This document shows positions 5,291 through 46,253 of a stretch of 64,000 bases of DNA, in pieces (within the stretch, counting starts at the first letter, position 1; every line of letters begins with the position of its first letter). Where the stretch lies: contig CM097886.1 of assembly GCA_044892525.1 (NCBI GenBank), forward strand, positions 103,416,001-103,480,000. Reading direction: 5' to 3'. The stretch comes from Schmidtea polychroa (lineage: Eukaryota). Below the pieces are notes generated by a model. That model saw only the letters and a list, made by a program, of their open reading frames with translations. It ran no database searches and was not told where the DNA came from. The position numbers were made by a program, and so were the translations under genes.

Positions 5291-7112
5291 CGTCTCATTA
5301 TTCGTGATCCGCCCCGGAAAATATTGATTTTTAATTTTTTGATTTGTTTAATTATTATTTTGTACTTAAAATTTTTATTTTGAATTTGGTGTTTTTATTG
5401 ATTTTCACCTCATTTTTGTACCTCTCTTGTAACCCCAACACACTAAAACTTACAGTGACGAAGCCCCCATCTGCGTGATTGAAGATGCCGTATACCCACC
5501 AGCTGAGCACCCGAAGGCCTCTCAAGCCATGGTATACAGTATTTCAACTCCTTGGTCACTACTATTCCAAACACAGAAATTAAAAAGAGAAATAAACGAC
5601 AAAGAGCACAATTAAAAAGGAATATAACTAATACTAGATTGAATAAAAAAATTTATTGGCTAAAAACATTAGATAAAAATTACACATTAAAATAAAATTA
5701 ACAAATCCAATTCAAGCGTACCTCGATGGCATAAAATCGAAAACTTAGGGCAGCAAAAATCTTGTGTTAACGTTAAATTTCAAAACCAAGTGTAATTTCA
5801 AATTGAAAAAATAGTTAGTTAACTGAATTTTCAATCAGTATTTATATTGATCTCAATGGTGCATTCATGCAATCTCTTCCACTAGATCCAATCAGAATGC
5901 AGTAAAACTTGATTTACTTTTGCATGCATGCATGAGTGTGTGTAATTATTTATTTTTAATTTAATTGATTTAATTTTTATTAATTTCAACAATTTAATTT
6001 TGTACATTTTTATAATTTAAATAATTTTAGCTAATTTTATTTTAATTTTCCTTAATTTTAACATTTGATTCTATAAACTTTATAATTCATATAATGTTAA
6101 CTAATTTTATTTTAATTTTTATTATTTTTTAACGATTTAATAAATGTTATAATTTACATAATTTCAACTAATTTTATCTTAATTTTTATTATCTTATCAA
6201 TTCAACTGGAAATTCTTTAGTTTCAATTTTTAAATGTATTTATATCTTTATTTTGTTTCCTTTAATTTTTAAATAAATTATTCTGTTCCTTTCTTAAAGT
6301 ATGCACTCATTGTCATAGCTCATTCGTATGTAAATGCGAGCCATAACATCCCTATTTAATTTGATTATGGTCCTTTGTATGTAAATATGACCAATAATCC
6401 TTCTTAAAATTTCTTTTCTTATTATTAGCTAATTTATTATCAATTATTTTATTTAGTAGTTGGCAGGTTTTTTGAATGCGATATTTCTCTTAACTGTGTT
6501 GGTGATTGCAACTTCTTGCGTTTCTTGATTCTATGATACATGTTTTAATGTGTTATGTACTTTATTTTGTATTATTTGACATATAACCATAGATTTTAAT
6601 TCAACTTAGTGCGGTTTTTATATTATATATTTCCGATCCATTAAAACAAACTCCCAACTTTCGGTTCTAGCCCAACGGGATGATTAATAACAAAAATTTT
6701 TAATAAAGGCCTCGTGCAATTTCATAAAGCTCACAACTAGGTACAACCTGAAGAATCCAAATCATTTGGAGTTTTCATGCCAAAGACAGATATATCAATA
6801 ATAATAGAACAACCTAGAACAATAACACTATCAAATATATCATAAAACATCCCATTACAACTTATTTATACTTCAGTTAAAGTTAAATATTGCATAAATT
6901 AGCAAATTTATTTTTTAGTAGACTCTACGTACAACTTAATGTTTTAAATTACACAATTCAATGAACATAAAGCATTACTACAGTAATTTGAAAAAATTTA
7001 AGAAAATAGCTTTTACAATTTCTGTATTTCATAATGAAAATTCATTTTAATAAATTATAATTTTAATTCCTTAAAATCAATCAACTATCAAATATCATTA
7101 TATTTGTTTAAC

Positions 7113-8093
7113 ATGGCTCCTACGTTAGGTTACTGGAAGATTCGAGGAGTATGTTTTCAACACCATTATGCATTATACTAATAATTAAAAATCATAGCTA
7201 GCTCAATCTATTAGACTTTTACTAGAATATACTGGAGAAGAATACCAAGAAAAGTTTTACGAATTGGGGAATGGTTAGATTATTTAACGGTAATGTTATT
7301 AAAAATAACATTATGCCTGTCGTCTAGCACCCGATTTTAATAGAGATGAATGGTTAAATGAAAAATTTAGCTTAGGATTAAGCTTTCCAAATGTTAGTTT
7401 TCAATTTTCATTAGTATGTAATTTATAAATTTTAGCTACCATATTTAATTGAAGGAGATTTTAAATTAACTCAATCTTCTGCTATTTTGCGTTATATAGC
7501 AGAAAAACATGACATGGGTAATATATTTAACAAATTTTATTTAAATTTCATTTATTCAATAGTTGGATCTTCCGTTGAAGAAAGAGCTGTTGTGAATATG
7601 GTTGCTGATGAAGTCCAAGATCTTCGAATGAGTTTTGGAAGATTATGTTATAGCCCGGATTTTGTAAATATTTCATTCAATTAAATTAATTAATTCAATT
7701 CTCAGGTTAAAATAAAAGATGATTATTTATCGCAATTACCAAGTCGTTTAAAATTATTTTCTGACTTCTTAGGAAGTAAACAATGGCTGATTGGTGAAAA
7801 GGTACGAAATATTTTTGATTTACATTTAATCTTATTATGGCATAGTTAACTTATTCTGACTTTAATTTCTATGATATACTGGACAGCTTAAAAATATTTT
7901 CACCGAATTGTTTGGATGAATTTGAAAATATCAAAACATATATAATTAAATTTGAGGTAATTATAATGAATAATAGATATTAAATTTATTATTCCAGAAA
8001 TTGGATCCGATTGCGAAGTATTTGAAGTCTAATAGATACATCCACAAACCATTGAATAACAAAGTCGCACAATTTGGTGGTGATACCGATTAA
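7113..8093 (+). CDS. GSTM: Glutathione S-transferase, mu class, 220 aa; exons 7113-7148, 7198-7273, 7328-7392, 7436-7517, 7563-7663, 7706-7801, 7846-7956, 7998-8093
   Basis: Spliced translation: MAPTLGYWKIRG|LAQSIRLLLEYTGEEY...|PDFNRDEWLNEKFSLGLSFPN|LPYLIEGDFKLTQSSAILRYIAEKH... All 7 introns are GT-AG (41-54 nt) and the frame is continuous to TAA at 8091-8093. Confidence 0.95.
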
Positions 8094-15595: not shown

Positions 15596-16255
15596 AGTTT
15601 CAAATCATAATTGTGATTATACACTATTGTATTACACACTTCTATTAAAACGGATGTACATTACACTGTTATAATATAACTAACCTCATTACACACTTGA
15701 TATTACTTTAGTTATTACACACCTGCAATAACTTCATTCCCCCACTTAAGCCCTAGCCCTCACTTTTTATTGTTTAGGGCCGCGTTGTGTGTGCGCTGTG
15801 CACAGAGACCCCGCCAAGAATCTGGGCAACCACTAAGAATCACTAAACAATAAAGAGAGGGGCATAAAAGAGAAAAGTGTACAGGAGTGAGTACAAGTGT
15901 GTAAGACAAGAGTAATGGCAGTTGTGCTTTGAGATACGTTTTAATATAAGATGTGTAATACAATATGCACAACACAGTAGATAGAGAAACAGACCTGGTT
16001 GCACAGCAGGAATAGTTCATAATATTACACACCAGTGAAAAGTTATGAAATGAAATTTAATATACAAGAAGGCATAAAATATCAATTAATATTGACATTC
16101 AAATTATGGATAGTCAAGAAAGATTGTTGCCAGACACTAGTCTACCATCAACATAAGAGGGAAATTCTACGTTAAACACTACTGACAACAGTAGAGCTCC
16201 ATTATTACATCCTCCGGTTAAACAACGGATAACATATGGAACAAGAGAACCTGTT

Positions 16256-17164
16256 ATGCCAAGAGAACCACAACAGATTACTAGACAATCATATAAAAGA
16301 TTCCTAGATGATATGAAGAATTACAGAATCGAAATGGATAAATGGTATGCAGGACAAGTATACCAATCGACTTCGAAAAGAAAGTGGCCTCAACAAAAAG
16401 AGGAACATGGATATAGAATAAAGGAACCATCATTTAAGAACCCTAAATTGGATACTCCAAGAATAAAAGAACCAACAAAAATGATTACTGGTCCTTTACC
16501 AAAACCGAGACCTAGACCGGCATTGGATGATTTGACAAAAGATATGTTATATAGACAGAGCCAAGATCAGGATTTACGATTAAAGTTATTGCAATCAGCT
16601 CGACAAAGAGACATAGACAGAGGGCTAACATGGAAAGGCGATACACAAATGTCATATGATGATTGGATTGCAAAGACTGAAAGAGATCGTTTTCCTTTGA
16701 CTGATAAAGAAAGAAGAAAAATGATAGATTACGATAGAAAGGTCAAAGCAGACTTACATGCTCAAATGGAAAAGCATAAATTGGATCCTAAGTATAAACC
16801 TAGTCACCATAGTAAGTCGTTATATGATATAAAACAATTCTTCGAATTCGAAAGAGAATTATTAATGAGGAATAAAGAAAAAGGTATTCCATTAGACAAA
16901 TGGAAAGCAAAGACAGATTTAAAAGGATTAAATGAGCCAATAAAGGAATTAGAACCATATAATGAGATTTTCGACAAACATAAAAAATGGTTAGAAACGA
17001 AAACGGAACATAATAAATGGGCAGTAAAGCAATTTGAAAATTTAAAATTACGTGGAAAAGAATTCCTGACCAGTTATATGCCACTACTAAAAACAGGTTT
17101 ACGTAACCTAGGCAAAATTGGTATTATAGCTTTAATTGACTTCGGGATACAAGGAGAAATATAA
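16256..17164 (+). CDS. Orphan 302-aa charged protein, array copy 1
   Basis: Intronless ORF repeated in all 4 units. An in-frame upstream ATG at 16106 is separated from it by one TAA. Confidence 0.6.
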   Translation: MPREPQQITRQSYKRFLDDMKNYRIEMDKWYAGQVYQSTSKRKWPQQKEEHGYRIKEPSFKNPKLDTPRIKEPTKMITGPLPKPRPRPALDDLTKDMLYRQSQDQDLRLKLLQSARQRDIDRGLTWKGDTQMSYDDWIAKTERDRFPLTDKERRKMIDYDRKVKADLHAQMEKHKLDPKYKPSHHSKSLYDIKQFFEFERELLMRNKEKGIPLDKWKAKTDLKGLNEPIKELEPYNEIFDKHKKWLETKTEHNKWAVKQFENLKLRGKEFLTSYMPLLKTGLRNLGKIGIIALIDFGIQGEI

Positions 17165-17550
17165 TAGTCAGCTAAACTATTCGATTAGTATTAGTAAAGG
17201 TCATAACGCAAAGGAGTTTAGATAGATTAACTGAGTGAAAAAGTGTGTAATTATACTTATCTATTTCTATTTATAACTCAGTCTCGTTACTATTATTAAT
17301 TCAAATATACCTTACTTTAATTCACAATTGTACACGAGTATGAGAGCCATGATGCAAAAGATTTTCTACTTTTCAAACTTTATTTACTTGGTCTTTGTGA
17401 CATTGCTTGTCTTTATATAAATTTTTATCAAATATATTTTTTTAATTATTTAACAAATTACATTTCAAATAAATAAAAATAAATATTTTAAAGTAGCTAT
17501 TTGTAAGCCAAATATATATATTAACTATCTAATATTAATATTTAACTACA

Positions 17551-18609
17551 ATGACAATTACAGATTTAGTTTCAAATCATAATTCTGATTATGCAAATTT
17601 TAATAGTAAAATAATAAAAAATAATAATAAAAATGCAAGAAAACGCAAAGTAAAATACAATGTTGTCTCAGTGGATTTTAAGTACAGCAAATCGAAATAT
17701 GAAAATGTTTACGACCCTGAAAGTAAGAAACCCGTTTCACTAATAAACCACGGGGTCAACTGCTACATGAACGCTGCTATCCAAAGTATTTTCACTCCTC
17801 TACATGAAATATACCAAAGACTGGATAATATTTCAATTCCAGCCAATTGTGGAGCTGTGATCTTACTAAAAAATCTAATGAAATCATATGAAAATCGAAA
17901 AAGCTTTTCAATTCGAGAATGTATTTCTAATTATTCAAAGCTCGAGTATTTCAGCAGTGAATTGTCGTGGAATCAGCAAGAAGATGCTCATGAGTTTTTG
18001 AATTGTTTTCTCAACAAATTACATAACGAATTAGGACTGGTGTCGACATCGGTCAAATCTCCTTTCGAAAGCGCACATGATTCTCGTTTCTTTTGTGATA
18101 ACTGTGGAAAATCGAATAGTTTAGAAAGTTCCAGTGTGGTGAAAGAAAATGTTCTATTTGTGAATGTTGGCAAAAACATGAATGAAATGATTGAGAAATC
18201 AACAAGTAACAAGGTTAATGGATTTAGTTGTGAAAATTGTGGAATAAAAGGCACAGCCAGCAACACTGCCGTTTTTTCAGAATTACCCAAATTTCTAATT
18301 ATTTGTGTTAAAAGATTTACCTATGATAATTATTGTGAAAGTGTAAAGAATTCAGATCAAATTGAAATCGAGGAATTTATTTCTGTCTCACTTAAAGAAA
18401 ACGACACAGTCAAACATGTAAAATATGAATTAATTTCAATAGTAAATCATCATGGAAGTGCGTTTGGTGGGCATTATAATTGTTGTTTAAAACATGAAAA
18501 CGTTTGGTACACAGCAGATGACGAATCCATTACAGAGTTCAGCTTCGATCAGGTCGTAAGCAGTTCCAGATCTTCATGTTATATACAGGTTTATGTAAAA
18601 AGAGAATAA
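17551..18609 (+). CDS. Ubiquitin-specific peptidase (USP, peptidase C19), intronless, copy 1
   Basis: Cys box LINHGVNCYMNAAIQ, QQEDAHEFL, CxxC pairs (CDNC, CENC), LPKFLIICVKRF, His box IVNHHGSAFGGHY and WYTADD. The catalytic C/H/D residues are intact. Confidence 0.93.
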   Translation: MTITDLVSNHNSDYANFNSKIIKNNNKNARKRKVKYNVVSVDFKYSKSKYENVYDPESKKPVSLINHGVNCYMNAAIQSIFTPLHEIYQRLDNISIPANCGAVILLKNLMKSYENRKSFSIRECISNYSKLEYFSSELSWNQQEDAHEFLNCFLNKLHNELGLVSTSVKSPFESAHDSRFFCDNCGKSNSLESSSVVKENVLFVNVGKNMNEMIEKSTSNKVNGFSCENCGIKGTASNTAVFSELPKFLIICVKRFTYDNYCESVKNSDQIEIEEFISVSLKENDTVKHVKYELISIVNHHGSAFGGHYNCCLKHENVWYTADDESITEFSFDQVVSSSRSSCYIQVYVKRE

Positions 18610-19159
18610 ATTCGAATGTATTGTTTATAAAACATTTTTAGTATCTATCATTTAAGTATAAATATACAAAGTAAAATATCTGTTTTTTCTATTATCATAA
18701 TAAAATTATTAATACTAATTTGTCTAAAATCTTATTTTTGATCGATTTTTTGAGATTAACTTTTCTTTGAAAGTAGTTGCTTCTATAATTAATTATGCGA
18801 AATTTTTGATTTTATTTTTTGATTTTATTTTATTTTATCAAATTTTAAAAGTTAATGAAAAATGTGCTTTAAAATATAGTAAAATTTCAAGTTTTCGATT
18901 TGAATATTATTAATGTCAGTTATTAATGTCAGTAAAAATAGCTCAAACTCAAGACACGAGTAGATAAATACGAATGCACTAGCTCACTATAGAATTAGTC
19001 TTCAATTAGCGCTTCAATTCGGCTAGAAGATGATGGTAATGTGATGTCCCATGGTCTATGTTTTAAATTCTGTCAATCACATCATGTTAAAGTAAATATT
19101 TTTCAAAATTTTCTCTAACATTTTGACACAAAATCCGGCTGCACATTAGCTCAAATGTA

Positions 19160-19357
19160 TCTAGGTCATGTAAGACGTAACCAACAGTTACTGCAGATAC
19201 AATGCTCGATACCTCAAAGATTCTATTCTGTCCCAAATTCGACTACCTCTATTACAAGTCTAGGTCATGTAAGACGTAACCAACAGTTACTGCAGATACA
19301 ATGCTCGATACCTCAAAGATTCTATTCTGTCCCAAATTCGACTACCTCTATTACAAG
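19160..19357 (+). repeat. 99-bp tandem repeat, 2 copies (unit 1)
   Basis: Perfect repeat TCTAGGTCATG...CTATTACAAG, period 99. Confidence 0.95.
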
Positions 19358-19571
19358 TCTGTTGTTCCAGGCATCAGTAAAATTATGAAAGCCCGCAACT
19401 ACGGTGCTAAAGAGAAATTGTGGTGCTGGACATGGGGCATGAACGAAAAGGGCGTATCAGATTATACACCTATGAGATGGGATTCATCGACAATATCGAA
19501 TCATATCCCTGGATTGAAGAATGCAACCCCATTCCGACAATATTCCTGAAAATTTCAGAAATCGTTAGATG

Positions 19572-19621
<50 letters not shown>

Positions 19622-19627
<6 letters not shown>

Positions 19628-20081
19628 GAATTATTTTTGCTGTGCAACCAGGTCTGTTTCTCTATCTACTGTGTTGTACACTATTGTATTACACACTTCT
19701 ATTAAAACGGATGTACATTACACTGTTATAATATAACTAACCTCATTACACACTTGATATTACTTTAGTTATTACACACCTGCAATAACTTCATTCCCCC
19801 ACTTAAGCCCTAGCCCTCACTTTTTATTGTTTAGGGCCGCGTTGTGTGTGCGCTGTGCACAGAGACCCCGCCAAGAATCTGGGCAACCACTAAGAATCAC
19901 TAAACAATAAAGAGAGGGGGATAAAAGAGAAAAGTGTACAGGAGTGAGTACAAGTGTGTAAGACAAGAGTAATGGCAGTTGTGCTTTGAGATACGTTTTA
20001 ATATAAGATGTGTAATACAATATGCACAACACAGTAGATAGAGAAACAGACCTGGTTGCACAGCAGGAATAGTTCATAATA
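19622..20081. mobile_element. ~460-bp fold-back / MITE-like element at the start of each unit (also 23733-24192, 27799-28258; left arm truncated in unit 1)
   Basis: Perfect 39-bp inverted repeat (19639-19677 vs 20026-20064) inside ~90-bp imperfect arms. Confidence 0.6.
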
Positions 20082-20312
20082 TTACACACCAGTGAAAAGT
20101 TATGAAATGAAATTTAATATACAAGAAGGCATAAAATATCAATTAATATTGACATTCAAATTATGGATAGTCAAGAAAGATTGTTGCCAGACACTAGTCT
20201 ACCATCAACATAAGAGGGAAATTCTACGTTAAACACTACTGACAACAGTAGAGCTCCATTATTACATCCTCCGGTTAAACAACGGATAACATATGGAACA
20301 AGAGAACCTGTT

Positions 20313-21221
20313 ATGCCAAGAGAACCACAACAGATTACTAGACAATCATATAAAAGATTCCTAGATGATATGAAGAATTACAGAATCGAAATGGATAAAT
20401 GGTATGCAGGACAAGTATACCAATCGACTTCGAAAAGAAAGTGGCCTCAACAAAAAGAGGAACATGGATATAGAATAAAGGAACCATCATTTAAGAACCC
20501 TAAATTGGATACTCCAAGAATAAAAGAACCAACAAAAATGATTACTGGTCCTTTACCAAAACCGAGACCTAGACCGGCATTGGATGATTTGACAAAAGAT
20601 ATGTTATATAGACAGAGCCAAGATCAGGATTTACGATTAAAGTTATTGCAATCAGCTCGACAAAGAGACATAGACAGAGGGCTAACATGGAAAGGCGATA
20701 CACAAATGTCATATGATGATTGGATTGCAAAGACTGAAAGAGATCGTTTTCCTTTGACTGATAAAGAAAGAAGAAAAATGATAGATTACGATAGAAAGGT
20801 CAAAGCAGACTTACATGCTCAAATGGAAAAGCATAAATTGGATCCTAAGTATAAACCTAGTCACCATAGTAAGTCGTTATATGATATAAAACAATTCTTC
20901 GAATTCGAAAGAGAATTATTAATGAGGAATAAAGAAAAAGGTATTCCATTAGACAAATGGAAAGCAAAGACAGATTTAAAAGGATTAAATGAGCCAATAA
21001 AGGAATTAGAACCATATAATGAGGTTTTCGACAAACATAAAAAATGGTTAGAAACGAAAACGGAACATAATAAATGGGCAGTAAAGCAATTTGAAAATTT
21101 AAAATTACGTGGAAAAGAATTCCTGACCAGTTATATGCCACTACTAAAAACAGGTTTACGTAACCTAGGCAAAATTGGTATTATAGCTTTAATTGACTTC
21201 GGGATACAAGGAGAAATATAA
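20313..21221 (+). CDS. Orphan 302-aa charged protein, array copy 2
   Basis: Differs from copy 1 by I->V (YNEI/YNEV). Confidence 0.6.
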   Translation: MPREPQQITRQSYKRFLDDMKNYRIEMDKWYAGQVYQSTSKRKWPQQKEEHGYRIKEPSFKNPKLDTPRIKEPTKMITGPLPKPRPRPALDDLTKDMLYRQSQDQDLRLKLLQSARQRDIDRGLTWKGDTQMSYDDWIAKTERDRFPLTDKERRKMIDYDRKVKADLHAQMEKHKLDPKYKPSHHSKSLYDIKQFFEFERELLMRNKEKGIPLDKWKAKTDLKGLNEPIKELEPYNEVFDKHKKWLETKTEHNKWAVKQFENLKLRGKEFLTSYMPLLKTGLRNLGKIGIIALIDFGIQGEI

Positions 21222-21607
21222 TAGTCAGCTAAACTATTCGATTAGTATTAGTAAAGGTCATAACGCAAAGGAGTTTAGATAGATTAACTGAGTGAAAAAG
21301 TGTGTAATTATACTTATCTATTTCTATTTATAACTCAGTCTCGTTACTATTATTAATTCAAATATACCTTACTTTAATTCACAATTGTACACGAGTATGA
21401 GAGCCATGATGCAAAAGATTTTCTACTTTTCAAACTTTATTTACTTGGTCTTTGTGACATTGCTTGTCTTTATATAAATTTTTATCAAATATATTTTTTT
21501 AATTATTTAACAAATTACATTTCAAATAAATAAAAATAAATATTTTAAAGTAGCTATTTGTAAGCCAAATATATATATTAACTATCTAATATTAATATTT
21601 AACTACA

Positions 21608-22666
21608 ATGACAATTACAGATTTAGTTTCAAATCATAATTCTGATTATGCAAATTTTAATAGTAAAATAATAAAAAATAATAATAAAAATGCAAGAAAA
21701 CGCAAAGTAAAATACAATGTTGTCTCAGTGGATTTTAAGTACAGCAAATCGAAATATGAAAATGTTTACGACCCTGAAAGTAAGAAACCCGTTTCACTAA
21801 TAAACCACGGGGTCAACTGCTACATGAACGCTGCTATCCAAAGTATTTTCACTCCTCTACATGAAATATACCAAAGACTGGATAATATTTCAATTCCAGC
21901 CAATTGTGGAGCTGTGATCTTACTAAAAAATCTAATGAAATCATATGAAAATCGAAAAAGCTTTTCAATTCGAGAATGTATTTCTAATTATTCAAAGCTC
22001 GAGTATTTCAGCAGTGAATTGTCGTGGAATCAGCAAGAAGATGCTCATGAGTTTTTGAATTGTTTTCTCAACAAATTACATAACGAATTAGGACTGGTGT
22101 CGACATCGGTCAAATCTCCTTTCGAAAGCGCACATGATTCTCGTTTCTTTTGTGATAACTGTGGAAAATCGAATAGTTTAGAAAGTTCCAGTGTGGTGAA
22201 AGAAAATGTTCTATTTGTGAATGTTGGCAAAAACATGAATGAAATGATTGAGAAATCAACAAGTAACAAGGTTAATGGATTTAGTTGTGAAAATTGTGGA
22301 ATAAAAGGCACAGCCAGCAACACTGCCGTTTTTTCAGAATTACCCAAATTTCTAATTATTTGTGTTAAAAGATTTACCTATGATAATTATTGTGAAAGTG
22401 TAAAGAATTCAGATCAAATTGAAATCGAGGAATTTATTTCTGTCTCACTTAAAGAAAACGACACAGTCAAACATATAAAATATGAATTAATTTCAATAGT
22501 AAATCATCATGGAAGTGCGTTTGGTGGGCATTATAATTGTTGTTTAAAACATGAAAACGTTTGGTACACAGCAGATGACGAATCCATTACAGAGTTCAGC
22601 TTCGATCAGGTCGTAAGCAGTTCCAGATCTTCATGTTATATACAGGTTTATGTAAAAAGAGAATAA
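21608..22666 (+). CDS. USP deubiquitinase, copy 2
   Basis: Same motifs as copy 1; one V->I change. Confidence 0.93.
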   Translation: MTITDLVSNHNSDYANFNSKIIKNNNKNARKRKVKYNVVSVDFKYSKSKYENVYDPESKKPVSLINHGVNCYMNAAIQSIFTPLHEIYQRLDNISIPANCGAVILLKNLMKSYENRKSFSIRECISNYSKLEYFSSELSWNQQEDAHEFLNCFLNKLHNELGLVSTSVKSPFESAHDSRFFCDNCGKSNSLESSSVVKENVLFVNVGKNMNEMIEKSTSNKVNGFSCENCGIKGTASNTAVFSELPKFLIICVKRFTYDNYCESVKNSDQIEIEEFISVSLKENDTVKHIKYELISIVNHHGSAFGGHYNCCLKHENVWYTADDESITEFSFDQVVSSSRSSCYIQVYVKRE

Positions 22667-23171
22667 ATTCGAATGTATTGTTTATAAAACATTTTTAGTA
22701 TCTATCATTTAAGTATAAATATACAAAGTAAAATATCTGTTTTTTCTATTATCATAATAAAATTATTAATACTAATTTGTCTAAAATCTTATTTTTGATC
22801 GATTTTTTGAGATTAACTTTTCTTTGAAAGTAGTTGCTTCTATAATTAATTATGCGAAATTTTTGATTTTATTTTTTGATTTTATTTTATTTTATCAAAT
22901 TTTAAAAGTTAATGAAAAATGTGCTTTAAAATATAGTGAAATTTCAAGTTTTCGATTTGAATATTATTAATGTCAGTTATTAATGTCAGTAAAAATAGCT
23001 CAAACTCAAGACACGAGTAGATAAATACGAATGCACTAGCTCACTATAGAATTAGTCTTCAATTAGCGCTTCAATTCGGCTAGAAGATGATGATAATGTT
23101 AAAGTAAATATTTTTCAAAATTTTCTCTAACATTTTGACACAAAATCCGGCTGCACACTAGCTCAAATGTA

Positions 23172-23468
23172 TCTAGGTCATGTAAGACGTAACCAACAGT
23201 TACTGCAGATACAATGCTCGATACCTCAAAGATTCTATTCTGTCCCAAATTCGACTACCTCTATTACAAGTCTAGGTCATGTAAGACGTAACCAACAGTT
23301 ACTGCAGATACAATGCTCGATACCTCAAAGATTCTATTCTGTCCCAAATTCGACTACCTCTATTACAAGTCTAGGTCATGTAAGACGTAACCAACAGTTA
23401 CTGCAGATACAATGCTCGATACCTCAAAGATTCTATTCTGTCCCAAATTCGACTACCTCTATTACAAG
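23172..23468 (+). repeat. 99-bp tandem repeat, 3 copies (unit 2)
   Basis: Same unit as 19160-19357 with one extra copy. Confidence 0.95.
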
Positions 23469-23682
23469 TCTGTTGTTCCAGGCATCAGTAAAATTATGAA
23501 AGCCCGCAACTACGGTGCTAAAGAGAAATTGTGGTGCTGGACATGGGGCATGAACGAAAAGGGCGTATCAGATTATACACCTATGAGATGGGATTCATCG
23601 ACAATATCGAATCATATCCCTGGATTGAAGAATGCAACCCCATTCCGACAATATTCCTGAAAATTTCAGAAATCGTTAGATG

Positions 23683-23738
<56 letters not shown>

Positions 23739-24423
23739 GAATTATTTTTGCTGTGCAACCAGGTCTGTTTCTCTATCTACTGTGTTGTACACTATTGTAT
23801 TACACACTTCTATTAAAACGGATGTACATTACACTGTTATAATATAACTAACCTCATTACACACTTGATATTACTTTAGTTATTACACACCTGCAATAAC
23901 TTCATTCCCCCACTTAAGCCCTAGCCCTCACTTTTTATTGTTTAGGGCCGCGTTGTGTGTGCGCTGTGCACAGAGACCCCGCCAAGAATCTGGGCAACCA
24001 CTAAGAATCACTAAACAATAAAGAGAGGGGGATAAAAGAGAAAAGTGTACAGGAGTGAGTACAAGTGTGTAAGACAAGAGTAATGGCAGTTGTGCTTTGA
24101 GATACGTTTTAATATAAGATGTGTAATACAATATGCACAACACAGTAGATAGAGAAACAGACCTGGTTGCACAGCAGGAATAGTTCATAATATTACACAC
24201 CAGTGAAAAGTTATGAAATGAAATTTAATATACAAGAAGGCATAAAATATCAATTAATATTGACATTCAAATTATGGATAGTCAAGAAAGATTGTTGCCA
24301 GACACTAGTCTACCATCAACATAAGAGGGAAATTCTACGTTAAACACTACTGACAACAGTAGAGCTCCATTATTACATCCTCCGGTTAAACAACGGATAA
24401 CATATGGAACAAGAGAACCTGTT

Positions 24424-25332
24424 ATGCCAAGAGAACCACAACAGATTACTAGACAATCATATAAAAGATTCCTAGATGATATGAAGAATTACAGAATCGA
24501 AATGGATAAATGATATGCAGGACAAGTATACCAATCGACTTCGAAAAGAAAGTGGCCTCAACAAAAAGAGGAACATGGATATAGAATAAAGGAACCATCA
24601 TTTAAGAACCCTAAATTGGATACTCCAAGAATAAAAGAACCAACAAAAATGATTACTGGTCCTTTACCAAAACCGAGACCTAGACCGGCATTGGATGATT
24701 TGACAAAAGATATGTTATATAGACAGAGCCAAGATCAGGATTTACGATTAAAGTTATTGCAATCAGCTCGACAAAGAGACATAGACAGAGGGCTAACATG
24801 GAAAGGCGATACACAAATGTCATATGATGATTGGATTGCAAAGACTGAAAGAGATCGTTTTCCTTTGACTGATAAAGAAAGAAGAAAAATGATAGATTAC
24901 GATAGAAAGGTCAAAGCAGACTTACATGCTCAAATGGAAAAGCATAAATTGGATCCTAAGTATAAACCTAGTCACCATAGTAAGTCGTTATATGATATAA
25001 AACAATTCTTCGAATTCGAAAGAGAATTATTAATGAGGAATAAAGAAAAAGGTATTCCATTAGACAAATGGAAAGCAAAGACAGATTTAAAAGGATTAAA
25101 TGAGCCAATAAAGGAATTAGAACCATATAATGAGGTTTTCGACAAACATAAAAAATGGTTAGAAACGAAAACGGAACATAATAAATGGGCAGTAAAGCAA
25201 TTTGAAAATTTAAAATTACGTGGAAAAGAATTCCTGACCAGTTATATGCCACTACTAAAAACAGGTTTACGTAACCTAGGCAAAATTGGTATTATAGCTT
25301 TAATTGACTTCGGGATACAAGGAGAAATATAA
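24424..25332 (+). pseudogene. Orphan 302-aa ORF, copy 3, with a nonsense mutation
   Basis: TGG->TGA at 24511-24513. Confidence 0.7.
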
Positions 25333-25718
25333 TAGTCAGCTAAACTATTCGATTAGTATTAGTAAAGGTCATAACGCAAAGGAGTTTAGATAGATTAACT
25401 GAGTGAAAAAGTGTGTAATTATACTTATCTATTTCTATTTATAACTCAGTCTCGTTACTATTATTAATTCAAATATACCTTACTTTAATTCACAATTGTA
25501 CACGAGTATGAGAGCCATGATGCAAAAGATTTTCTACTTTTCAAACTTTATTTACTTGGTCTTTGTGACATTGCTTGTCTTTATATAAATTTTTATCAAA
25601 TATATTTTTTTAATTATTTAACAAATTACATTTCAAATAAATAAAAATAAATATTTTAAAGTAGCTATTTGTAAGCCAAATATATATATTAACTATCTAA
25701 TATTAATATTTAACTACA

Positions 25719-35749: not shown

Positions 35750-35977
35750 ATGGGTGCTAATCCTTCATTGCCCGACATTAAATTTAATTTTAAATCTTCT
35801 TGTTGTAATGGAGAAGATTTGGACGAACCCAGAAGACAAAGCCGGTTTCGGTGGAGTGGAAAAATTAAAGAAAAGAGTTCCGAATTCGAAAAAAGAAACC
35901 CAGGAGTGGTTATCAGATCAGCTTGCGTACAGTTTGAACAAACCAATGCGGAAAAGATTTCCAACAAGAGCGTATAA
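35750..35977 (+). CDS. Overprinted 75-aa ORF with an N-myristoylation-type start (MGANPS)
   Basis: ATG lies 3 nt after the previous stop and fits the MGxxxS consensus. It overlaps the integrase 5' end in another frame. Confidence 0.4.
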   Translation: MGANPSLPDIKFNFKSSCCNGEDLDEPRRQSRFRWSGKIKEKSSEFEKRNPGVVIRSACVQFEQTNAEKISNKSV

Positions 35978-36854
35978 AACATTTGGTATTGATGATTTAT
36001 GGCAAATGGATTTGATGGAGATGATACTTTATTCGAAAATTAACAATGGGAATAAATATATTTTAACATGTATTAATGTATACAGCAGGTTTGCACGAGC
36101 AATACCAGTCAAGGCAAAATCTGCAGAAGAAATGTCCAAGGCAATTAATATTTTATTTAAAGATGGACATCCTAATAACTTGCAAACAGATTTAGGTATT
36201 ATTATTATTATTATTATTATTTTAGGTAAAGAATTCTATAATAGCAAAGTTAAGCAAATTCTCGATAAACTGAAAATAAATCACTACTCGGTACATTCTC
36301 AATACAAAGCTGCCCATGTTGAAAGATTTAATCGAACATTGAGAGATAGATTAAAGAAATTGTTCGTGCATCAAGGTAATAAAAAATGGGTAAATGTATT
36401 ACCGAAAATAATAACAAGTTATAATCATTCATCACATCGAGGACTGAATGGATTGAGACCGGTTGATATTACATCAAAAACATCATTGACTTCTAAAAAA
36501 TCTGTAAAAATTGCAAAACCTAAATATAAAGTTGGTGACCATGTTAGAATTAGTAAAATTAGTGCATCACCATTTATTAAAAATTTTGATACAAATTGGA
36601 GTGATGAAGTCTTTGTAATTTCAAAAATAAATACTAAACAGAATCCTGTAATGTATGTCATCAAAGATAATGATAATAATATTGTACAGGGGAAATTTTA
36701 TGAGCAGGAATTACAAGTCATTCCTCCCCCAAAAGTATTTAGAATTCAAAAAATATTGAAAACTAAAAAAGTCGGCAAGGATAAACAATACTATGTCAAA
36801 TGGCATGGTTATCAAAACCCGTCATGGATATCAGCAAAAGATCTAGTAAAGTGA
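35808..36854 (+). CDS. Maverick retroviral-like (RVE, DDE) integrase with a C-terminal chromo-like domain; probable 30-nt intron at 36196-36225
   Basis: WQMDLMEM (D), LQTDL^GKEF (D), KAAHVERFNRTLR (E), YKVGDHVRI, GKFYEQEL and YYVKWHGY. The likely start is MEKIWTNP at 35808. Confidence 0.93.
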   Translation: MEKIWTNPEDKAGFGGVEKLKKRVPNSKKETQEWLSDQLAYSLNKPMRKRFPTRAYKTFGIDDLWQMDLMEMILYSKINNGNKYILTCINVYSRFARAIPVKAKSAEEMSKAINILFKDGHPNNLQTDLGIIIIIIIILGKEFYNSKVKQILDKLKINHYSVHSQYKAAHVERFNRTLRDRLKKLFVHQGNKKWVNVLPKIITSYNHSSHRGLNGLRPVDITSKTSLTSKKSVKIAKPKYKVGDHVRISKISASPFIKNFDTNWSDEVFVISKINTKQNPVMYVIKDNDNNIVQGKFYEQELQVIPPPKVFRIQKILKTKKVGKDKQYYVKWHGYQNPSWISAKDLVK

Positions 36855-37873
36855 ATTTTTATACTATTTTGCCGAGCAATAGTTGCCCATTAATTCATCC
36901 AGACAATCAAGCCAGTAAATTTATGGTCAATCTCCAGAATCCGATTTCTTTAAATGGTGACTGGGAAGTTGCACTGCAAGATTTTACATTCGTGTACAAT
37001 ACATTCCCATTTTATAGTCAATGTAAGATTGATTTCAAAAGGAATATTGTGAAAACATGTAGCGGTATCTTTGTTATCAGTAATTATGATAAAACATATC
37101 ACATTCCGAATCAAATTTTAGATTCGCATTGCTATATGTTTTACAAGGATGGATTAAATATCAGTTGTGATTTTAAACCATTTACAATAACATTCGAAAC
37201 TATTGAAGATGCCAAACGAATGGGTTGCAATAAGTTGAAAAATATTATTACGGAGACCGAGTATTTATTACGTTTTAAGATATTTGAAGCAAACAGTATA
37301 GTGAAAGAAGAAATCAAAATATCTGCGTCGTATAATGATGAAGTTGAAGAATCATTCACCTTTGCTGATGAATTATATTTTGATAAACTTGATGTATTAC
37401 TTAAATATTTAAAGTTCAATTGTTCACACATATTTAAAAATTTGGAAATTGTGAAAGATTTGATGTTTACCTTCATTTTGAATGATGATATTTGCGAAGT
37501 TACATTTGATAAAAATTTGGCAAATTCACTTGGATTAGATAAGCAAAAATATCGAGAAAAATCGACTGGTATACGCAAACCAAGAATACTAGAACATCAT
37601 CAACAAATGTTCATATATACTAACATTATTGAACCCATAATTGTTGGTGATTCCAGTGTTCCTCTTTTGAAATCGGTATGGATTGGAAAATATGAACATG
37701 ATGAAGTTGTCAATATAAATATCGATAATCCCATGTATTTACCAATAGCAAGTTCATGTATAAACAATATAGAAATAAATATTCGTGATGATAGTGGAAA
37801 ACTTATAAACTTTCCAAAAGGTTCAAAAACTCATTTGACATTACATTTTCGTAAAGTAGATGGCAAATTCTGA
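36824..37873 (+). CDS. Minor capsid protein (penton, single jelly roll)
   Basis: FYTILPSNS...NPISLNGDWEVAL N-terminus and IYTNIIEP..VGDSSVPLLK...IEINIRDDSG...LTLHFRK C-terminus are typical of the Maverick minor capsid protein. Confidence 0.88.
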   Translation: MDISKRSSKVNFYTILPSNSCPLIHPDNQASKFMVNLQNPISLNGDWEVALQDFTFVYNTFPFYSQCKIDFKRNIVKTCSGIFVISNYDKTYHIPNQILDSHCYMFYKDGLNISCDFKPFTITFETIEDAKRMGCNKLKNIITETEYLLRFKIFEANSIVKEEIKISASYNDEVEESFTFADELYFDKLDVLLKYLKFNCSHIFKNLEIVKDLMFTFILNDDICEVTFDKNLANSLGLDKQKYREKSTGIRKPRILEHHQQMFIYTNIIEPIIVGDSSVPLLKSVWIGKYEHDEVVNINIDNPMYLPIASSCINNIEINIRDDSGKLINFPKGSKTHLTLHFRKVDGKF

Positions 37874-38228
37874 TATTATTAGTATGTATAGTGGTAGCCA
37901 ATCTGGCGGTGAATTACCATATTTTATTGGTAAACAGTACGGATCGGGATGGTTGAGAACAATTGGTAGATTTGCATTGCCTATTCTTAAACGTATTGGT
38001 AGTTTTGGTATGAAAACTGCAAAAGATGTTATTATGAATGAACAGAAAATATTACCATCTCTAAAAACAAATGCTTTAGCTGAATTAGGTAAAGTTTTAC
38101 CGGGGGTTGCAGGTATGTTTCAAAAAGAAAAATCTCCAGCTCCAGCTCCTGTTCCAAAACGTAAAAGACACGGAATATCACGTATAAACAAACGAATGAA
38201 AGGACATGGAACTATATTTGCAAAATGA
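37860..38228 (+). CDS. Conserved Maverick protein with QSGG/QYGSG motifs and an amphipathic helix (candidate membrane-lytic / core protein)
   Basis: SQSGGELPYFIGKQYGSGWLRTIGRFALPILKRIG; lies between penton and hexon. Confidence 0.75.
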   Translation: MANSDIISMYSGSQSGGELPYFIGKQYGSGWLRTIGRFALPILKRIGSFGMKTAKDVIMNEQKILPSLKTNALAELGKVLPGVAGMFQKEKSPAPAPVPKRKRHGISRINKRMKGHGTIFAK

Positions 38229-39448
38229 TTTGTGGTAAATCTGAATTATGTATATTTGATAGACCATCGCCTCAAGCGGTAATTGAATTTGGGGCGTTTG
38301 AGGAAGTTTTTCCTATGAATTCAATTACCGATAGTAGAAATGATATAGAGTTTTATATTAATGGTTCGCAAACTGAATATTTAGATTTGAACGATACTTT
38401 ATTGACTGTTCAGATCAAGGTTGTAGATAAAGATAGAAAAGTTTTGGATGCCAATGCAGATGTAATACCGAACAATTTCCTGTTTCATACTCTGTTTAAA
38501 GATGCAGTGTTGGGATTTAATAATATAAAGATTGAGGGTGGAAATAATACATTCATTCACAAAGCTTTAATAGAAACTATTTTAAATTACAATTCCGATA
38601 CTAAAAATACATGTCTTACTCCAATGGGTTATGCAGCAGCAGATGATGAAAGAAAAAAGTGGGTTAAAGGCTCAAAGGTTTTCACCATGTGCTCATCATT
38701 ACAACTCGATTTTATGGATCAACCGAAATATTTACTACCGGGAGTTAATGTACATATTAGACTGAAAAGGTCTGATTCTGCATTATCTCTTACTAGTGCA
38801 ATTGGTGCACCAATATGTCAATTAGTTGATGCAAAATTATTGGTGAGAAGAGTTCGAGTAGACCCGTCAGTATTAGCTGGTCATCAATTAGGTCTTAATT
38901 CAAAACATGCAATTTATCCATTAAAAACAAAGGAAATTGTACAATTCGCTATTGCTAAAGGTGCTTCATCATTCTATAAAGAACAAATATTTGGTGATAG
39001 AAGAATGCCTAATTTTATTCTGATAACATTTCAAAGTGAAACACAATATAATGGATCATATACTGCGTCCAGTTCAATTTTCAAAAACTTTGGTGTTACA
39101 TCATTGACTTTGTCGAAAAATACTGATTATAGAGAAACATATATTCAAGATTTCGAGAATGACAATTACTGTGCGACATATATGCAGAGTATTGTTAGAA
39201 ATCTGGGTTATTTAGATAAAAATTTGAATTGTGGAATAACTCTAGAAGAATTTAAAACCAAATACCCATTTTTTACATTTGTTTTAGCCCCCGATTTTGA
39301 TTTAAATCAGAGTCAATTACCCCAAAATGGAAATTTACGACTGGATATAAAGTTTGCAAAAGCAATTACTGAACCAGTCCATGTAATAATCTATGGAGTA
39401 TTTGAAAATGAAGTTCAAATTACTGCAAATAGAACAGTGTTGGTATAA
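38225..39448 (+). CDS. Major capsid protein (hexon, double jelly roll)
   Basis: 407 aa. SELCIFD...IEFYINGS..EYLDLNDTLL, QPKYLLPGVNVHIRLKRS, and GNLRLDIKFA are characteristic of the Maverick MCP. Confidence 0.9.
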   Translation: MICGKSELCIFDRPSPQAVIEFGAFEEVFPMNSITDSRNDIEFYINGSQTEYLDLNDTLLTVQIKVVDKDRKVLDANADVIPNNFLFHTLFKDAVLGFNNIKIEGGNNTFIHKALIETILNYNSDTKNTCLTPMGYAAADDERKKWVKGSKVFTMCSSLQLDFMDQPKYLLPGVNVHIRLKRSDSALSLTSAIGAPICQLVDAKLLVRRVRVDPSVLAGHQLGLNSKHAIYPLKTKEIVQFAIAKGASSFYKEQIFGDRRMPNFILITFQSETQYNGSYTASSSIFKNFGVTSLTLSKNTDYRETYIQDFENDNYCATYMQSIVRNLGYLDKNLNCGITLEEFKTKYPFFTFVLAPDFDLNQSQLPQNGNLRLDIKFAKAITEPVHVIIYGVFENEVQITANRTVLV

Positions 39449-39475: not shown

Positions 39476-39859
39476 ATGGAGTAAGTTTTTTGATACTATT
39501 TAATTTATTAAAGTAGTTCTGTTCAGGTTAATCGAATTGGAAAACAGATATTGGGAAATGAATTTGTAGGAGTTTTTCCTCTCGATAAAATTCCATATTT
39601 GAGAAATAATCAAGCCATAATCGTCAATACTCAATCGTCTCATCTTGGTGGAGAACATTGGATAGCTATATACGTGAAACCTAGTAATATATTCGTATTC
39701 GATCCTATGGGTTTTTATTACCCGGCTTTATTGATATCAAAACTGCAAACAATGGGGAAACCTATTATGTATAATAAAACTATGTTTCAAAATCCATTGA
39801 CCCAAACATGTGGTCAACATTGTTTAGCTTGGTTGTTGTATAAAAAATTTGATGTTTAA
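39476..39859 (+). CDS. Adenain-like cysteine maturation protease, 115 aa; exons 39476-39480, 39517-39859
   Basis: ATGGA|gtaagt...aagtag|TTCT gives MDSVQVNRIGKQILGNEFVGVFP. Catalytic GEHW, FDPMG and QTCGQHC are present. Confidence 0.9.
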
Positions 39860-41545: not shown

Positions 41546-42080
41546 NNNNNNNNNNNNNNNNNNNNNNNNNNNNNNNNNNNNNNNNNNNNNNNNNNNNNNN
41601 NNNNNNNNNNNNNNNNNNNNNNNNNNNNNNNNNNNNNNNNNNNNNNNNNNNNNNNNNNNNNNNNNNNNNNNNNNATATCTTTCACATAGTTAGCATTCAG
41701 CATGCGACTACCAACCTATGATATTAATAATATTAATAATAATTCATATGATTCATTTTAGTTTACAATTACCAATTTCAGATTATTTTACAATTATTAA
41801 TATTTATTTCATTTTTACGGTTTTTTTTTATTAGAAATGAAATAAATATCAATAACTGTTATAGATTTATAACAATAAATATATAGATATTTTATGTAAA
41901 TTATATTAGTCTAATAAAATGTATTAATTAATGTTATTTTTGAACAAATACAATCGAAATGATATATATATTCAAAAATTTTAGAATGTAATTTAATTAT
42001 TTTTTAAAAATTTATTAGGCAAACTATATCAACGATATTGTCAATCCTCAATTGGACATAGCTCTGCATGCCATAAAGTA

Positions 42081-42269
42081 ATGAAGCTTTACTATGGTCA
42101 TAGATTCTATGGCACCAACTTTTTTATTTGCCCCAAATGCGAAACTGCCCAAGATTTAAAATACATAGATTTTTATAAGGGGCATTACACCCACTTAAAT
42201 CAATTTGTATTGAATAAAAAGACCCTTTTTAATATAATTTATGCGAAAACTAATAAGAATAATAATACA

Positions 42270-42349
<80 letters not shown>

Positions 42350-45300
42350 TAATAACAGAAATAATAGAAATAATAATAATACCAATAACAGAAATAATAA
42401 TACAAATAACCGAAATAATACAAATAATAATGATTCAAATAATGGAAATAGTACATATAATAATAATATTACAAATAATGGAAATATTAATAATACAAAT
42501 AATAGAAATATAGATAATACAAATAATAATACAAATAATAATACAAATAATAATAATAATAATACAAATAATAATACAAATAATCGAAATAATAAAAAAT
42601 CTAAAAGACCTGCTGTAAATACTGTTCCGTGTATCCCTACTAAAATTATAAAATTATCAACCATCGTGATAAGTGATGATGAATCTGAATTATTAAATAC
42701 CCAAATAGGGGGTTCGATAAACAATATAGAAAATATTCAAATAGATATAAATGATGAACCTGAAATAGAGATAGATTTAAAGGGTTCCCGTAAAAATATT
42801 CGATTTGATTTAGAACATAAAAACTTAATTCAAATCTCCCTTACGGATAAAATTATAAATAAAATTAATGTGGAAATTGAAAAGATGGGATCTGTAAAAG
42901 TCCAGTTTACAGTTCTTATTCAATTTGAAAAAGATGGAGAAATTAAAGATAATTTCTTTTCAAATAGTGCGAGTGTTTTTTCCGACAATTTTCTTATCGA
43001 TGGTGTGAGTCGATTAAATGAGAAAATTGAAAAATTTACTTATTTAGGTAGCGGATGGAGGGTTGTAAAGATTAAGGAACTTGATTTTATTTTGACCACA
43101 TTTTACCCTATAAGTCGATTAGCTGGCCATAGTTTTATACCTACACCAGCGGCAATATATAAAAAGAAAGCAATTGTAAATGTAAGAAACAATGATAATG
43201 CTTGTTTTATATATAGTGTTTTATCACTATTAAAGCGTGATATAATTTTAAATCACAGGGAGCGTGTTTCCAATTATACTAATTACTTAGACGAACTAAA
43301 TTATGATCCCATTACTGATTGCCCAATGAGGTTATGCAACATCCCGAAATTTGAAAGAAATAACATAGATTTAAAATTGGCAATCAATGTTTTTGAATAT
43401 AAACCCACAATAACAGGGAATAAAATAAATAATGATATAGATTATGTACCTCATCATCCACACCTAAATATAATTCATAGATCTAAGGTTACCGAAGGGA
43501 ATCCTATTAATCTTTTACTCCTACAAGACGGTGATAATTATCATTACACCGCAATTTTTAATTTAAACCGATTAATGAATGGTCATTCAACCATCGAATG
43601 TAATACTAGAATTAGAGTTAGATGGTGCCCTCATTGTTTAAATGGTTTTTATCGGGTCAAAACTTTTAAGGTACATGTTGCATTGTGCGCTAAAAATCAA
43701 ATAGGAACCACCCTTTACACGCTCCCTAAAAATAAAAATTTAACGTTTAAAGATTATTCAAAGATGATTACCCCACCGTTCGTAATATACGCGGACTTTG
43801 AGGCTATTTTACCTGGGGATATAAATCATCACCAAATACACAAGCCAATAACAGCAGGTCTATTATTAATTAACAATTACACTAACACAACATCATATTT
43901 TAATTTTATAGGCTTGGAATGTGTTTTTGAATTTTTAAAGAAGGTGGAGGAAATTGCTGTCACAATTGTCCTCCCGTATTATGAAATTCATGGTAGAAAA
44001 TTCATCAATACTCTGTCTTTCAATGAGGAACGGGAGTTCAACAACTGTAGGACTTGTTATCTCTGTAAACATTTTATAAAGGATAAGGTTAAGGACCATG
44101 ATCATTTCACAGGTAAGTATCTTGGTGCTGCCTGTAGAAATTGCAATGTTTCTAGGAGAATAAACAAACAGGGGTATGACTTACATCACATTTTAAAGTA
44201 TGGTTTGAATGATTTTCCATCTTGGAAATTAAATATCATTCCGACCACCACTGAAAAATTTATATCCTTGATTGTAAATATTAACAAATTGACTGTTCGT
44301 TTTATCGACAGTATGCAATTTGTTAACTCATCGTTAGCAAAGGCAGTTAAAACTCTTTCAGATTTACCTTTAACTTCGTCTGTTTTTGATGGTAGTATTG
44401 TGAGAGCAAAGGGCATATTTCCTTACGACTTTGCAACATCACTCGAAATTCTTGAATCTACTCATGAATTACCACCGATTTGGAGTTCTGTATCTAATGA
44501 AGAATATGCTATCGCCCAAGAAATCTGGGTTCAGCAAAATTGCGAAACAATGTTAGACTATATGTTAACGTACCTTAAATTGGACGTATTCCTCTTGGCA
44601 GATTATTTTCAGCAATTCCGTGCCAAAGCAATTGCTTATAACGGCCTTGAACCTCTAAACTTCTATGGAATTCCAGGTATGTCATGGGCGTCAGCACTCA
44701 TGACATTACAGGAACCTATAGAAGTTCTACAGGATATGGAAATGTATAATTTCTACGAAGGTGGAATACGGGGCGGGTTAACATTTGTTAACAAACATTA
44801 TGTAGCAAGTTCTGAAGATACAGAACTTTTGTATATAGATATAAATAATTTATATGGTTGGGCTCTTAGCCAAAATCTTCCGTATGGTGACTTTGTTTGG
44901 GTGTATGAAAATCTGAATGATGTGTTGAGTGAATGCGTGAATGCCGATATTGAAAACCTTCCATATGGTTATACTATGGAAGTAGACATCAATATCCCTA
45001 ATCGTGTGCATGAATATTTGAATGATTTTCCGCTTGCTCCTGAAAAAATGTGTCCACCTAATTCAAAGGTTGAGAAGCTTATGCTCACGCATTGGCCTAA
45101 GAAGAACCATGTTCTTCATTGGCGGCTTCTCAAGCTGTATATAGAATTAGGTGCGGAAGTTGAGCATGTACATAGAGCAATTAAATTTAAACAATCAACA
45201 ATTTTCAAAACATATATAGATCGAAATACTAATTTACGTTCAAAATCAACATGTGAACTGTATAGAGATCTATATAAATTATTCAATAATAGTCTCTATG

Positions 45301-46253
45301 GTAAATCATTAGAGAATTTGAAAAAACGTATGAATTTGAGGCTATGCAATTCATCAGCAAAGATGATTGTATACGCCTCCAAACCAACTTTCAAAAAATC
45401 AATTAAAATAGCGGATGATCTGATTGCGGTTCATCTTAATAAAGATATTATATGTTTAGACAGGCCTAGCTACATAGGCCAATCAGTGCTAGACCTGTCT
45501 AAACTACGCATGTATCAACTGCAATATAATGAATTGGCAAAATATAGATCCGAATTCTTATGTGATATAAATATCGTTGCCGGCGATACTGATTCGTTTT
45601 TTCTTGAGGTTAAGCACTGTAAGCTAGACACTCTTTTGCCGGCAATGATAAGAGATAATCTTCTAGATACCTCTAATTATGATCCCGCACACCCATTATA
45701 CTCGAGAAACCTTGATTCTGTGATAGGAAAATTTAAAGATGAAAGCAAAGGTCTCGGGTATAAGGAATGGGTTTTCTTAAGACCTAAGTGCTATAGTTTA
45801 TTAGGTGTCAAAGATACTATGAGGGCTAAAGAGGTGAAGTTAATGGGGACAGAGATTGAGCACCAGTCATATTTAGACTGCTACAATAACAACGTAGAAA
45901 TTGCAGTGCCGCAAACTAGGATAGGGACGCGGAACCACCAACTATATACCATCAAAAATAGTAAAATCGCATTGACAAATAACGATGACAAGCGATTATG
46001 GGTGGGGAAAAATAATAGTATCGCATTTGGGCATTATTTTGGGGTTGATGCTGTAGATAATGATCAAGTATTGGATGAAGTTGGACCGCTCTCTGTAGGT
46101 TTCAGTCCAGATTTCGATGAAAGTGATCAAATATTAGAGGAAGTTGGACCGCTTTGTGGAGGTTTCAGCCCAGATTTCGATGATAGTATCGATATAGATG
46201 TTGATATAGACGATATTATATTAACTGATGATGATGATGACGACTATTATTAA
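42081..46253 (+). CDS. polB: Protein-primed family B DNA polymerase (pPolB), copy 1, uninterrupted (1390 aa)
   Basis: Exo I YADFE, CxxC...DHDH...CxxC (endonuclease VII-like) insert, YLKLDV, YIDINNLYGWAL, KLFNNSLYGK, AGDTDS and RPKCY. Also a poly-Asn tract and an acidic tail. Confidence 0.95.

Follow-up and report, generated by a model that had tools for sequence, protein, structure and literature searches.

The third intron of the Drosophila P element, when retained in somatic cells, yields a repressor, and its retention is tissue-regulated by known factors; the element described here is similar in that the gene of its mobility enzyme carries an intron and retained transcripts appear in probable RNA, but whereas retention in the P element ends the reading frame early, here it is in frame, and in two families only. 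Intact Mavericks of vertebrates are intronless according to the cited sections of Barreat and Katzourakis (2021; PMC8097293). Our element shares with the animal Maverick/Polinton elements of those sections a chromodomain integrase, an A32-type ATPase, an adenovirus-type protease and a long polymerase-like ORF in one cluster, but unlike the vertebrate elements it has short GT..AG introns in its integrase gene and in an accessory gene, present or absent by family. Dinoflagellate Maverick-like proviruses also have introns inside element genes, which in the cited part of that study (PMC11957031) are mobile introner copies, whereas in our element families the AT-rich interiors are unrelated and occupy a single fixed position. 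DDE enzyme genes with spliceosomal introns are likewise described for Ginger1 transposons, with 1-4 GT-AG introns and an integrase-like transposase (PMC2836005), and for the intron-bearing Tc1-like DNA element TLEWI (10.1101/656579); unlike our virus-like element, these are of the simple cut-and-paste or domesticated kind, and the cited parts of the two reports describe no microsatellite interior. The new introns of Daphnia pulex, as presented in the cited part of PMC4202315, resemble the present case in presence or absence at one site, possible parallel gain and short terminal repeats, but they are recent, population-level gains in host genes, whereas the gain considered here would predate the split of the element families, its trace having decayed. 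The literature searched, mainly open-access main texts, holds no report of an integrase intron at this Maverick site, and the parts consulted of PMC10748475, PMC8502044, PMC6431247, PMC10558129 and PMC11410931 make no mention of such introns.

The element and the insert in its integrase

The window, that is, the whole 64,000-nt stretch of Schmidtea polychroa DNA analysed here (GCA_044892525.1, contig CM097886.1, positions 103,416,001 to 103,480,000), holds a Maverick/Polinton element with an integrase (Pfam rve and Chromo), a Pox_A32 ATPase, a Peptidase_C5 protease, a TBP-like ORF and a long ORF. Its features other than the integrase are:

33859..33904, - strand: ordinary GT..AG intron of 46 nt interrupting a small accessory gene; GT..AG ends and a length of 45-51 nt in 27 of the 27 copies where it was found
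34031..34495, - strand: TBP-like ORF of the element (Pfam TBP, 1.6e-14), conserved across the families fetched
34526..35194, + strand: packaging ATPase ORF, given stop to stop (Pfam Pox_A32, 3.8e-7)
36785..37873, + strand: likely minor capsid ORF, so named from its position; conserved across families, no Pfam hit
38165..39448, + strand: likely major capsid ORF, so named from its position and size; conserved across families, no Pfam hit
39512..39859, + strand: adenovirus-type protease (Pfam Peptidase_C5, 1.9e-6)
41997..46253, + strand: long polymerase-like ORF of 1418 codons, conserved across families, no Pfam polymerase hit

The ORF at 41997..46253 may encode a protein-primed family-B polymerase, to judge by motifs recognised by eye. 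Its N-terminal linker contains an in-frame poly-Asn (AAT) run at 42250-42600 (+), the repeat type of the integrase insert described below, tolerated there in coding sequence. Between 41600 and 64000 the polymerase-like region occurs as several tandem repeats of more than 99% identity, either as a rearranged copy or as an assembly effect. A candidate left end lies near 30995; no inverted partner was found in the window, whose right part is tandem-repeated and partly N. Just outside this end is an intron-less ubiquitin-specific protease ORF (29773-30843, +; Pfam UCH). At 15612-30994 are about four units of approximately 4.1 kb with more than 99.5% identity, each with a 336-codon ORF lacking a Pfam hit and with a 99-bp subrepeat of varying copy number.

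The integrase is interrupted at 36196-36225 (+) by a 30-nt GT..AG stretch of ATT repeats with TTTAG before and GTA after it (36191-36228 in the window sequence):

35808..36195, + strand: integrase exon 1, the second catalytic Asp being encoded at 36189-36191 (Pfam rve; alignment to solved retroviral integrases)
36191..36198, + strand: first TTTAGGTA, exon end plus donor (sequence)
36196..36225, + strand: probable intron of phase 1, 30 nt, filled with ATT repeats, a contracted copy of a family-wide intron (sequence, family survey, same position in other families)
36221..36228, + strand: second TTTAGGTA, acceptor plus exon start (sequence)
36226..36854, + strand: integrase exon 2, with the catalytic Glu region and a C-terminal chromodomain (Pfam rve and Chromo; retroviral integrase alignment)

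The initial annotation had seen here an 8-mer duplicated around a repeat with GT..AG ends, whose retention would be in frame, and the window bears this out: TTTAGGTA stands on both sides, and the open frame reads ...LQTDLG-I8-LG-KEF, ten residues, including the Ile8 run, more than in intron-less relatives. That the insert adjoins the catalytic Asp is confirmed as well, since a profile of 53 homologues run against solved structures aligns LQTDLG with the TD(NG) of retroviral integrases (LQTDNG in FIV, INTDNG in HTLV-2), which places it two codons past the second catalytic Asp; a phmmer search of solved structures with the single integrase gave no match. We take the Asp of LQTD to be this residue from what is generally known of DDE integrases. 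The insert had also been called the shortest intron of the stretch, which holds among the introns measured in the window (the others are 41-54 nt), a comparison covering those introns rather than every gene. Altogether we give a probability of about 0.78 to the reading that it is a slippage-shortened copy of an ordinary lineage-specific spliceosomal intron, the interior of which was later overtaken by an ATT microsatellite and which is inefficiently spliced.

Copies of the insert and introns at the same site in other families

The donor junction has 940 exact matches in the 781-Mb genome assembly. The insert is present in all 30 family loci first fetched (30-129 nt), which were the best matches and hence biased to short inserts; in copies taken in list order it spans 48-174 nt with a median of 102 nt (55 of 60 measurable, four being broken inside the repeat and L081 having been fetched with too little flank). 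Comparing other genomic copies for presence and length, as the initial annotation had advised, thus shows both, and a private inactivating slippage event is excluded by the 30 of 30 first copies and the 940 exact donors. Over all copies seen, lengths run from 21 to 174 nt, mostly 50-170 nt, and the window copy is a contracted outlier, one of the six at 30 nt or less genome-wide (21 copies are at 39 nt or less). The assembly contains no exact insert-less family-A junction, and the 13 insert-less matches with one mismatch (10 fetched) represent a sister family, S, about 77% identical. In 78 of 80 family-A copies the insert ends in AG; its GT end was part of the selection criterion. In the four broken copies (L044, L056, L060 and L070, of 60) the break or recombination lies within the intron repeat, and two of them run on into polymerase-like sequence, which suggests that ATT arrays are rearrangement points.

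It had been argued that a true intron should tolerate lengths that are not multiples of three. In the survey, 5 of 55 and 6 of 80 copies have left the triplet register, and in all six of the latter both tested exon stretches are open. The test is a weak one for a trinucleotide repeat, because slippage by itself keeps lengths at multiples of three (50 of 55). The latter, together with the lack of in-frame stops in any measured insert, is also what a translated insert would be expected to show, and in this respect speaks against splicing. A TTAAT-type word lies 12-15 nt upstream of the AG in 6 of the 80 copies and is scattered elsewhere, which is suggestive only of a branch-point gain inside the repeat. 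Five loci (L046, L058, L059, L062 and L063) form a subfamily in which the repeat ends in such a word and a poly-T tract, with lengths outside the triplet register among them; it is possible that stronger splice signals were regained there.

Could the insert simply not be spliced, either as an inactivating microsatellite in a non-autonomous family that is moved by intron-less integrases, or as a tolerated loop of the protein? Some intron-less families of this genome do keep open integrase frames, and the poly-Asn run in the polymerase ORF of the same element shows what coding sequence may bear. But a dead gene is excluded by purifying selection on both exons: exon 1 has a pN/pS of 0.21 across the 80 family-A copies and exon 2, over its first 55 codons, one of 0.08, and variants common to at least three copies are 45 synonymous against 17 non-synonymous, whereas private variants are 16 against 62 (neutral site ratio about 1 to 4). 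Family A made working integrase while its inserts, if translated, would have put tens of Ile residues at the active site. A translated loop is opposed by insert lengths reaching 174 nt, equivalent to about 56 Ile, and by the copies outside the triplet register with open exons, and both variants by plain introns at the same site in other families and by a junction-shaped contig in run X2 (below). We regard an unspliced insert as very improbable.

The position itself offers independent evidence. A gapped pattern search of the genome gave 534 matches; among the 100 listed, about 29 (counted by eye) have at exactly this site a GT..AG intron that is AT-rich and free of repeats. These plain introns measure 43 nt in family C, 45 nt in D, 42 nt in E and 40 nt in F, and each is either not a multiple of three or contains an in-frame stop. 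Most of the other rows among the matches listed belong to family B, which has an interrupted ATT repeat of 42 nt and is, with A, the most numerous family. Intron-less matches number 114 and fall into families S, G and H (100 listed, 30 fetched). Thus, six of the nine integrase families in the genome have the intron and three do not, and at one site GT and AG ends are conserved across families around unrelated interiors. Since frame-breaking plain introns occupy the same position in four families, the intron position is supported, and with it the initial view of the insert as an intron, which the selection on the exons and the X2 contig in probable RNA favour too; the homology of the repeat intron to the plain ones cannot be shown from the letters.

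The element also carries host-type introns elsewhere, as indicated by plain introns of host size at several sites. A host gene at 7113-8090 (+), which we take to be GST-like from its translation, has six modelled introns of 41-54 nt with TAAT-like words and a seventh beyond the model, and the plain element introns of 40-45 nt belong to this size class. The accessory-gene intron at 33859..33904 is similar in homologues of two other elements, and another GT..AG intron, of 39 nt, lies in an accessory gene of family E (L162, reverse strand, near 5347). Two other ATT stretches of the window, 31395-31445 and 33350-33505, compared across copies, show no conserved-intron behaviour. In the accessory ORF at 33122-33505 (-), the window copy has a TAA array in place of the 5' half that family B possesses.

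Possible splicing and retention in probable RNA

Two runs bear on splicing, X1 and X2, both only probable RNA, their nature being guessed, as no run is recorded as RNA. Contigs on the window stretch cannot show the joint, as the repeat is skipped, and a natural insert-less locus, L036, was used as the reference. In X1, family-A contigs enter the repeat from both sides at a depth of 16-17; this is retention only, so that the retained form foreseen by the initial annotation exists in probable RNA, and it is also the pattern of an insert that is never spliced. In X2, a 47-nt upstream contig (depth 114.1) ends at the last letter that exon 2 has in common with the intron; another contig, of 52 nt and depth 21.9, covers 1486-1537 of the L036 reference with three differences. 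With 31-letter words, the length, ends and mismatch count of the latter are predicted only for spliced family A; it was identified by this geometry and mismatch count, its letters being undisplayed, and the matching exon-2 allele is found in 147 genomic copies. X4 has no contig on L036, and X3 has none across the site on the window stretch. The DNA control, X15, shows 8 of 243 pieces and therefore does not exclude the same contig in DNA. We read the two depths, 21.9 against 114.1, as roughly a fifth of family-A transcripts being spliced, a rough figure because contig depth is crude; antisense or nascent RNA inflates apparent retention. Since the X2 contigs cannot be assigned to one of the more than 900 copies, the evidence for splicing is at the level of the family. 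The window copy sits in a rearranged element, and its own splicing is doubtful, its 30 nt lying below the 40-54-nt class and probably below the size that the host splices well.

When the retained form is modelled with AlphaFold2, the fold is preserved (mean pLDDT 86.8) and the Ile insert forms a low-confidence loop. Such tolerance of a 10-residue loop would suit an unspliced insert; the underlying alignment biases the model toward a kept fold, and the model does not prove the short retained form inactive.

It is possible that retention serves a purpose. As in the P element, it might act as a regulated switch, in which retention would yield a full-length but inactive integrase, still equipped with its chromodomain, as a repressor of integration, with the length of the repeat tuning the ratio of the two forms. 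Both forms do appear in probable RNA, retention being the majority; in the most numerous families, A and B, a retained intron neither shifts the frame nor brings in a stop; and the site lies two codons from the catalytic Asp. However, an in-frame retained product is not conserved, as the intron breaks the frame or contains a stop in C to F. Moreover, the triplet lengths and absence of stops follow from ATT slippage alone, since no single change makes in-frame ATT a stop, and 6 of 80 copies have left the register, members of the poly-T-tailed subfamily among them. Most retention is error according to the cited part of 10.1101/114215, where retained introns invisible to nonsense-mediated decay are usually in deficit. 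We consider a regulated switch unlikely; were it shown, it would add a new way of controlling a virus-like element. A related scenario would combine origin and function, the intron having been gained beside the active site, perhaps twice at a hot spot, and then turned by the most successful family into an in-frame microsatellite free of stops, with repeat length setting the share of active and poisoned integrase copy by copy, like a dimmer; this, too, we hold to be improbable.

The most likely scenario is that of an ordinary, weakly spliced intron. Host spliceosomes would remove the family-A intron from a minority of transcripts, and these would provide the working integrase maintained by selection. 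Splicing would be weak because a pure repeat probably offers a poor branch site. Retained transcripts of A and B, being stop-free, would escape nonsense-mediated decay and be translated into an enzyme in which a poly-Ile run adjoins the catalytic Asp; a splicing error is the simplest account of them. More than 900 near-identical copies varying mainly in intron length provide a natural series for the minimum size of an intron and for the effect of repeats on splicing.

Probable order of gain, possible loss and repeat takeover

Of 38 metagenomic loci from outside this genome, 34 cover the motif, and each of these 34 reads straight through it at the DNA level, with no intron. Absence is thus ancestral, and the intron gain at an AG|GT site that the initial annotation proposed is supported as a gain in this lineage at a G|GT or AG|GT site. 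The 120 database proteins come from intron-blind gene callers (the motif pattern read 80, all of them contiguous), so that the DNA-level metagenomic loci carry the outgroup claim; by the same token, such callers miss or mis-call the integrases studied here. A search of viral contigs found no relative.

For the trees, 150 loci were screened, 72 of which were open, and 18 plus 2 read with X entered the protein tree together with 45 of the 120 database proteins; rows with stops or shifts were left out of the trees, and family D is only in the DNA trees. Family F is sister to A and B with support of 100/94 in the protein tree and of 98/98 and 100/99 in the trees of exon DNA. Because F has a plain intron, the ATT repeat is secondary by parsimony, and it would have been in the ancestor of A and B that the interior turned into ATT repeats. 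The trees need two changes in any case, and the starred branches of the larger tree force two. A constraint that holds all intron-bearing families together is not rejected (p-AU 0.052, 0.147 and 0.067), nor is one that makes S and G a single clade (p-AU 0.30, 0.20 and 0.20). We infer that the intron was gained at the G|GT site either once, with later loss in S and G, or twice, presumably after Mavericks had entered the host lineage. Nine families that differ in one intron would thus record a datable gain, a possible loss or parallel gain, and then takeover by a microsatellite.

It is less clear that the duplicated 8-mer marks this birth, as the initial annotation supposed. On that account, the intron would have arisen recently and independently of the plain introns, by duplication of TTTAGGTA in break repair or as a target-site duplication around an ATT filler. 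The 8-mer is indeed repeated, and the letters shared at the junction (3+5 in the window) exceed those of six host introns, which share at most 2. Daphnia gains with terminal repeats of 4-12 bp and parallel gains at one site, described in the cited part of PMC4202315, would offer a precedent, and the trees need two changes anyway. However, recent birth would require a further independent gain at the same site, since a plain intron of 40 nt, whose flanks show no repeat of the 8-mer, is already present in the sister family F. The TTTAGGTA repeat is to be expected where the GTA/TTTAG splice consensus meets Leu-Gly-Lys codons, and junction letters are shared in families E (4+8), C (5+1) and D (3+1) too. 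Some family-A copies have TTTGG instead of TTTAG before the donor, and family B has its interrupted repeat at an ordinary 42 nt. The 8-mer duplication is therefore likely not the birth mark, and we find recent birth around a repeat unlikely. Plain introns resemble their own flanks no more than chance would give (p<0.05, uncorrected, in 3 of 48 tests), and since old interiors may have decayed, an old duplication may still have been the origin of the intron.

A final observation concerns the region 3' of the integrase. In L003, L006 and others, the minor-capsid-like region is 78-86% identical as against 97-98% for the integrase, which we take as module exchange between subfamilies.
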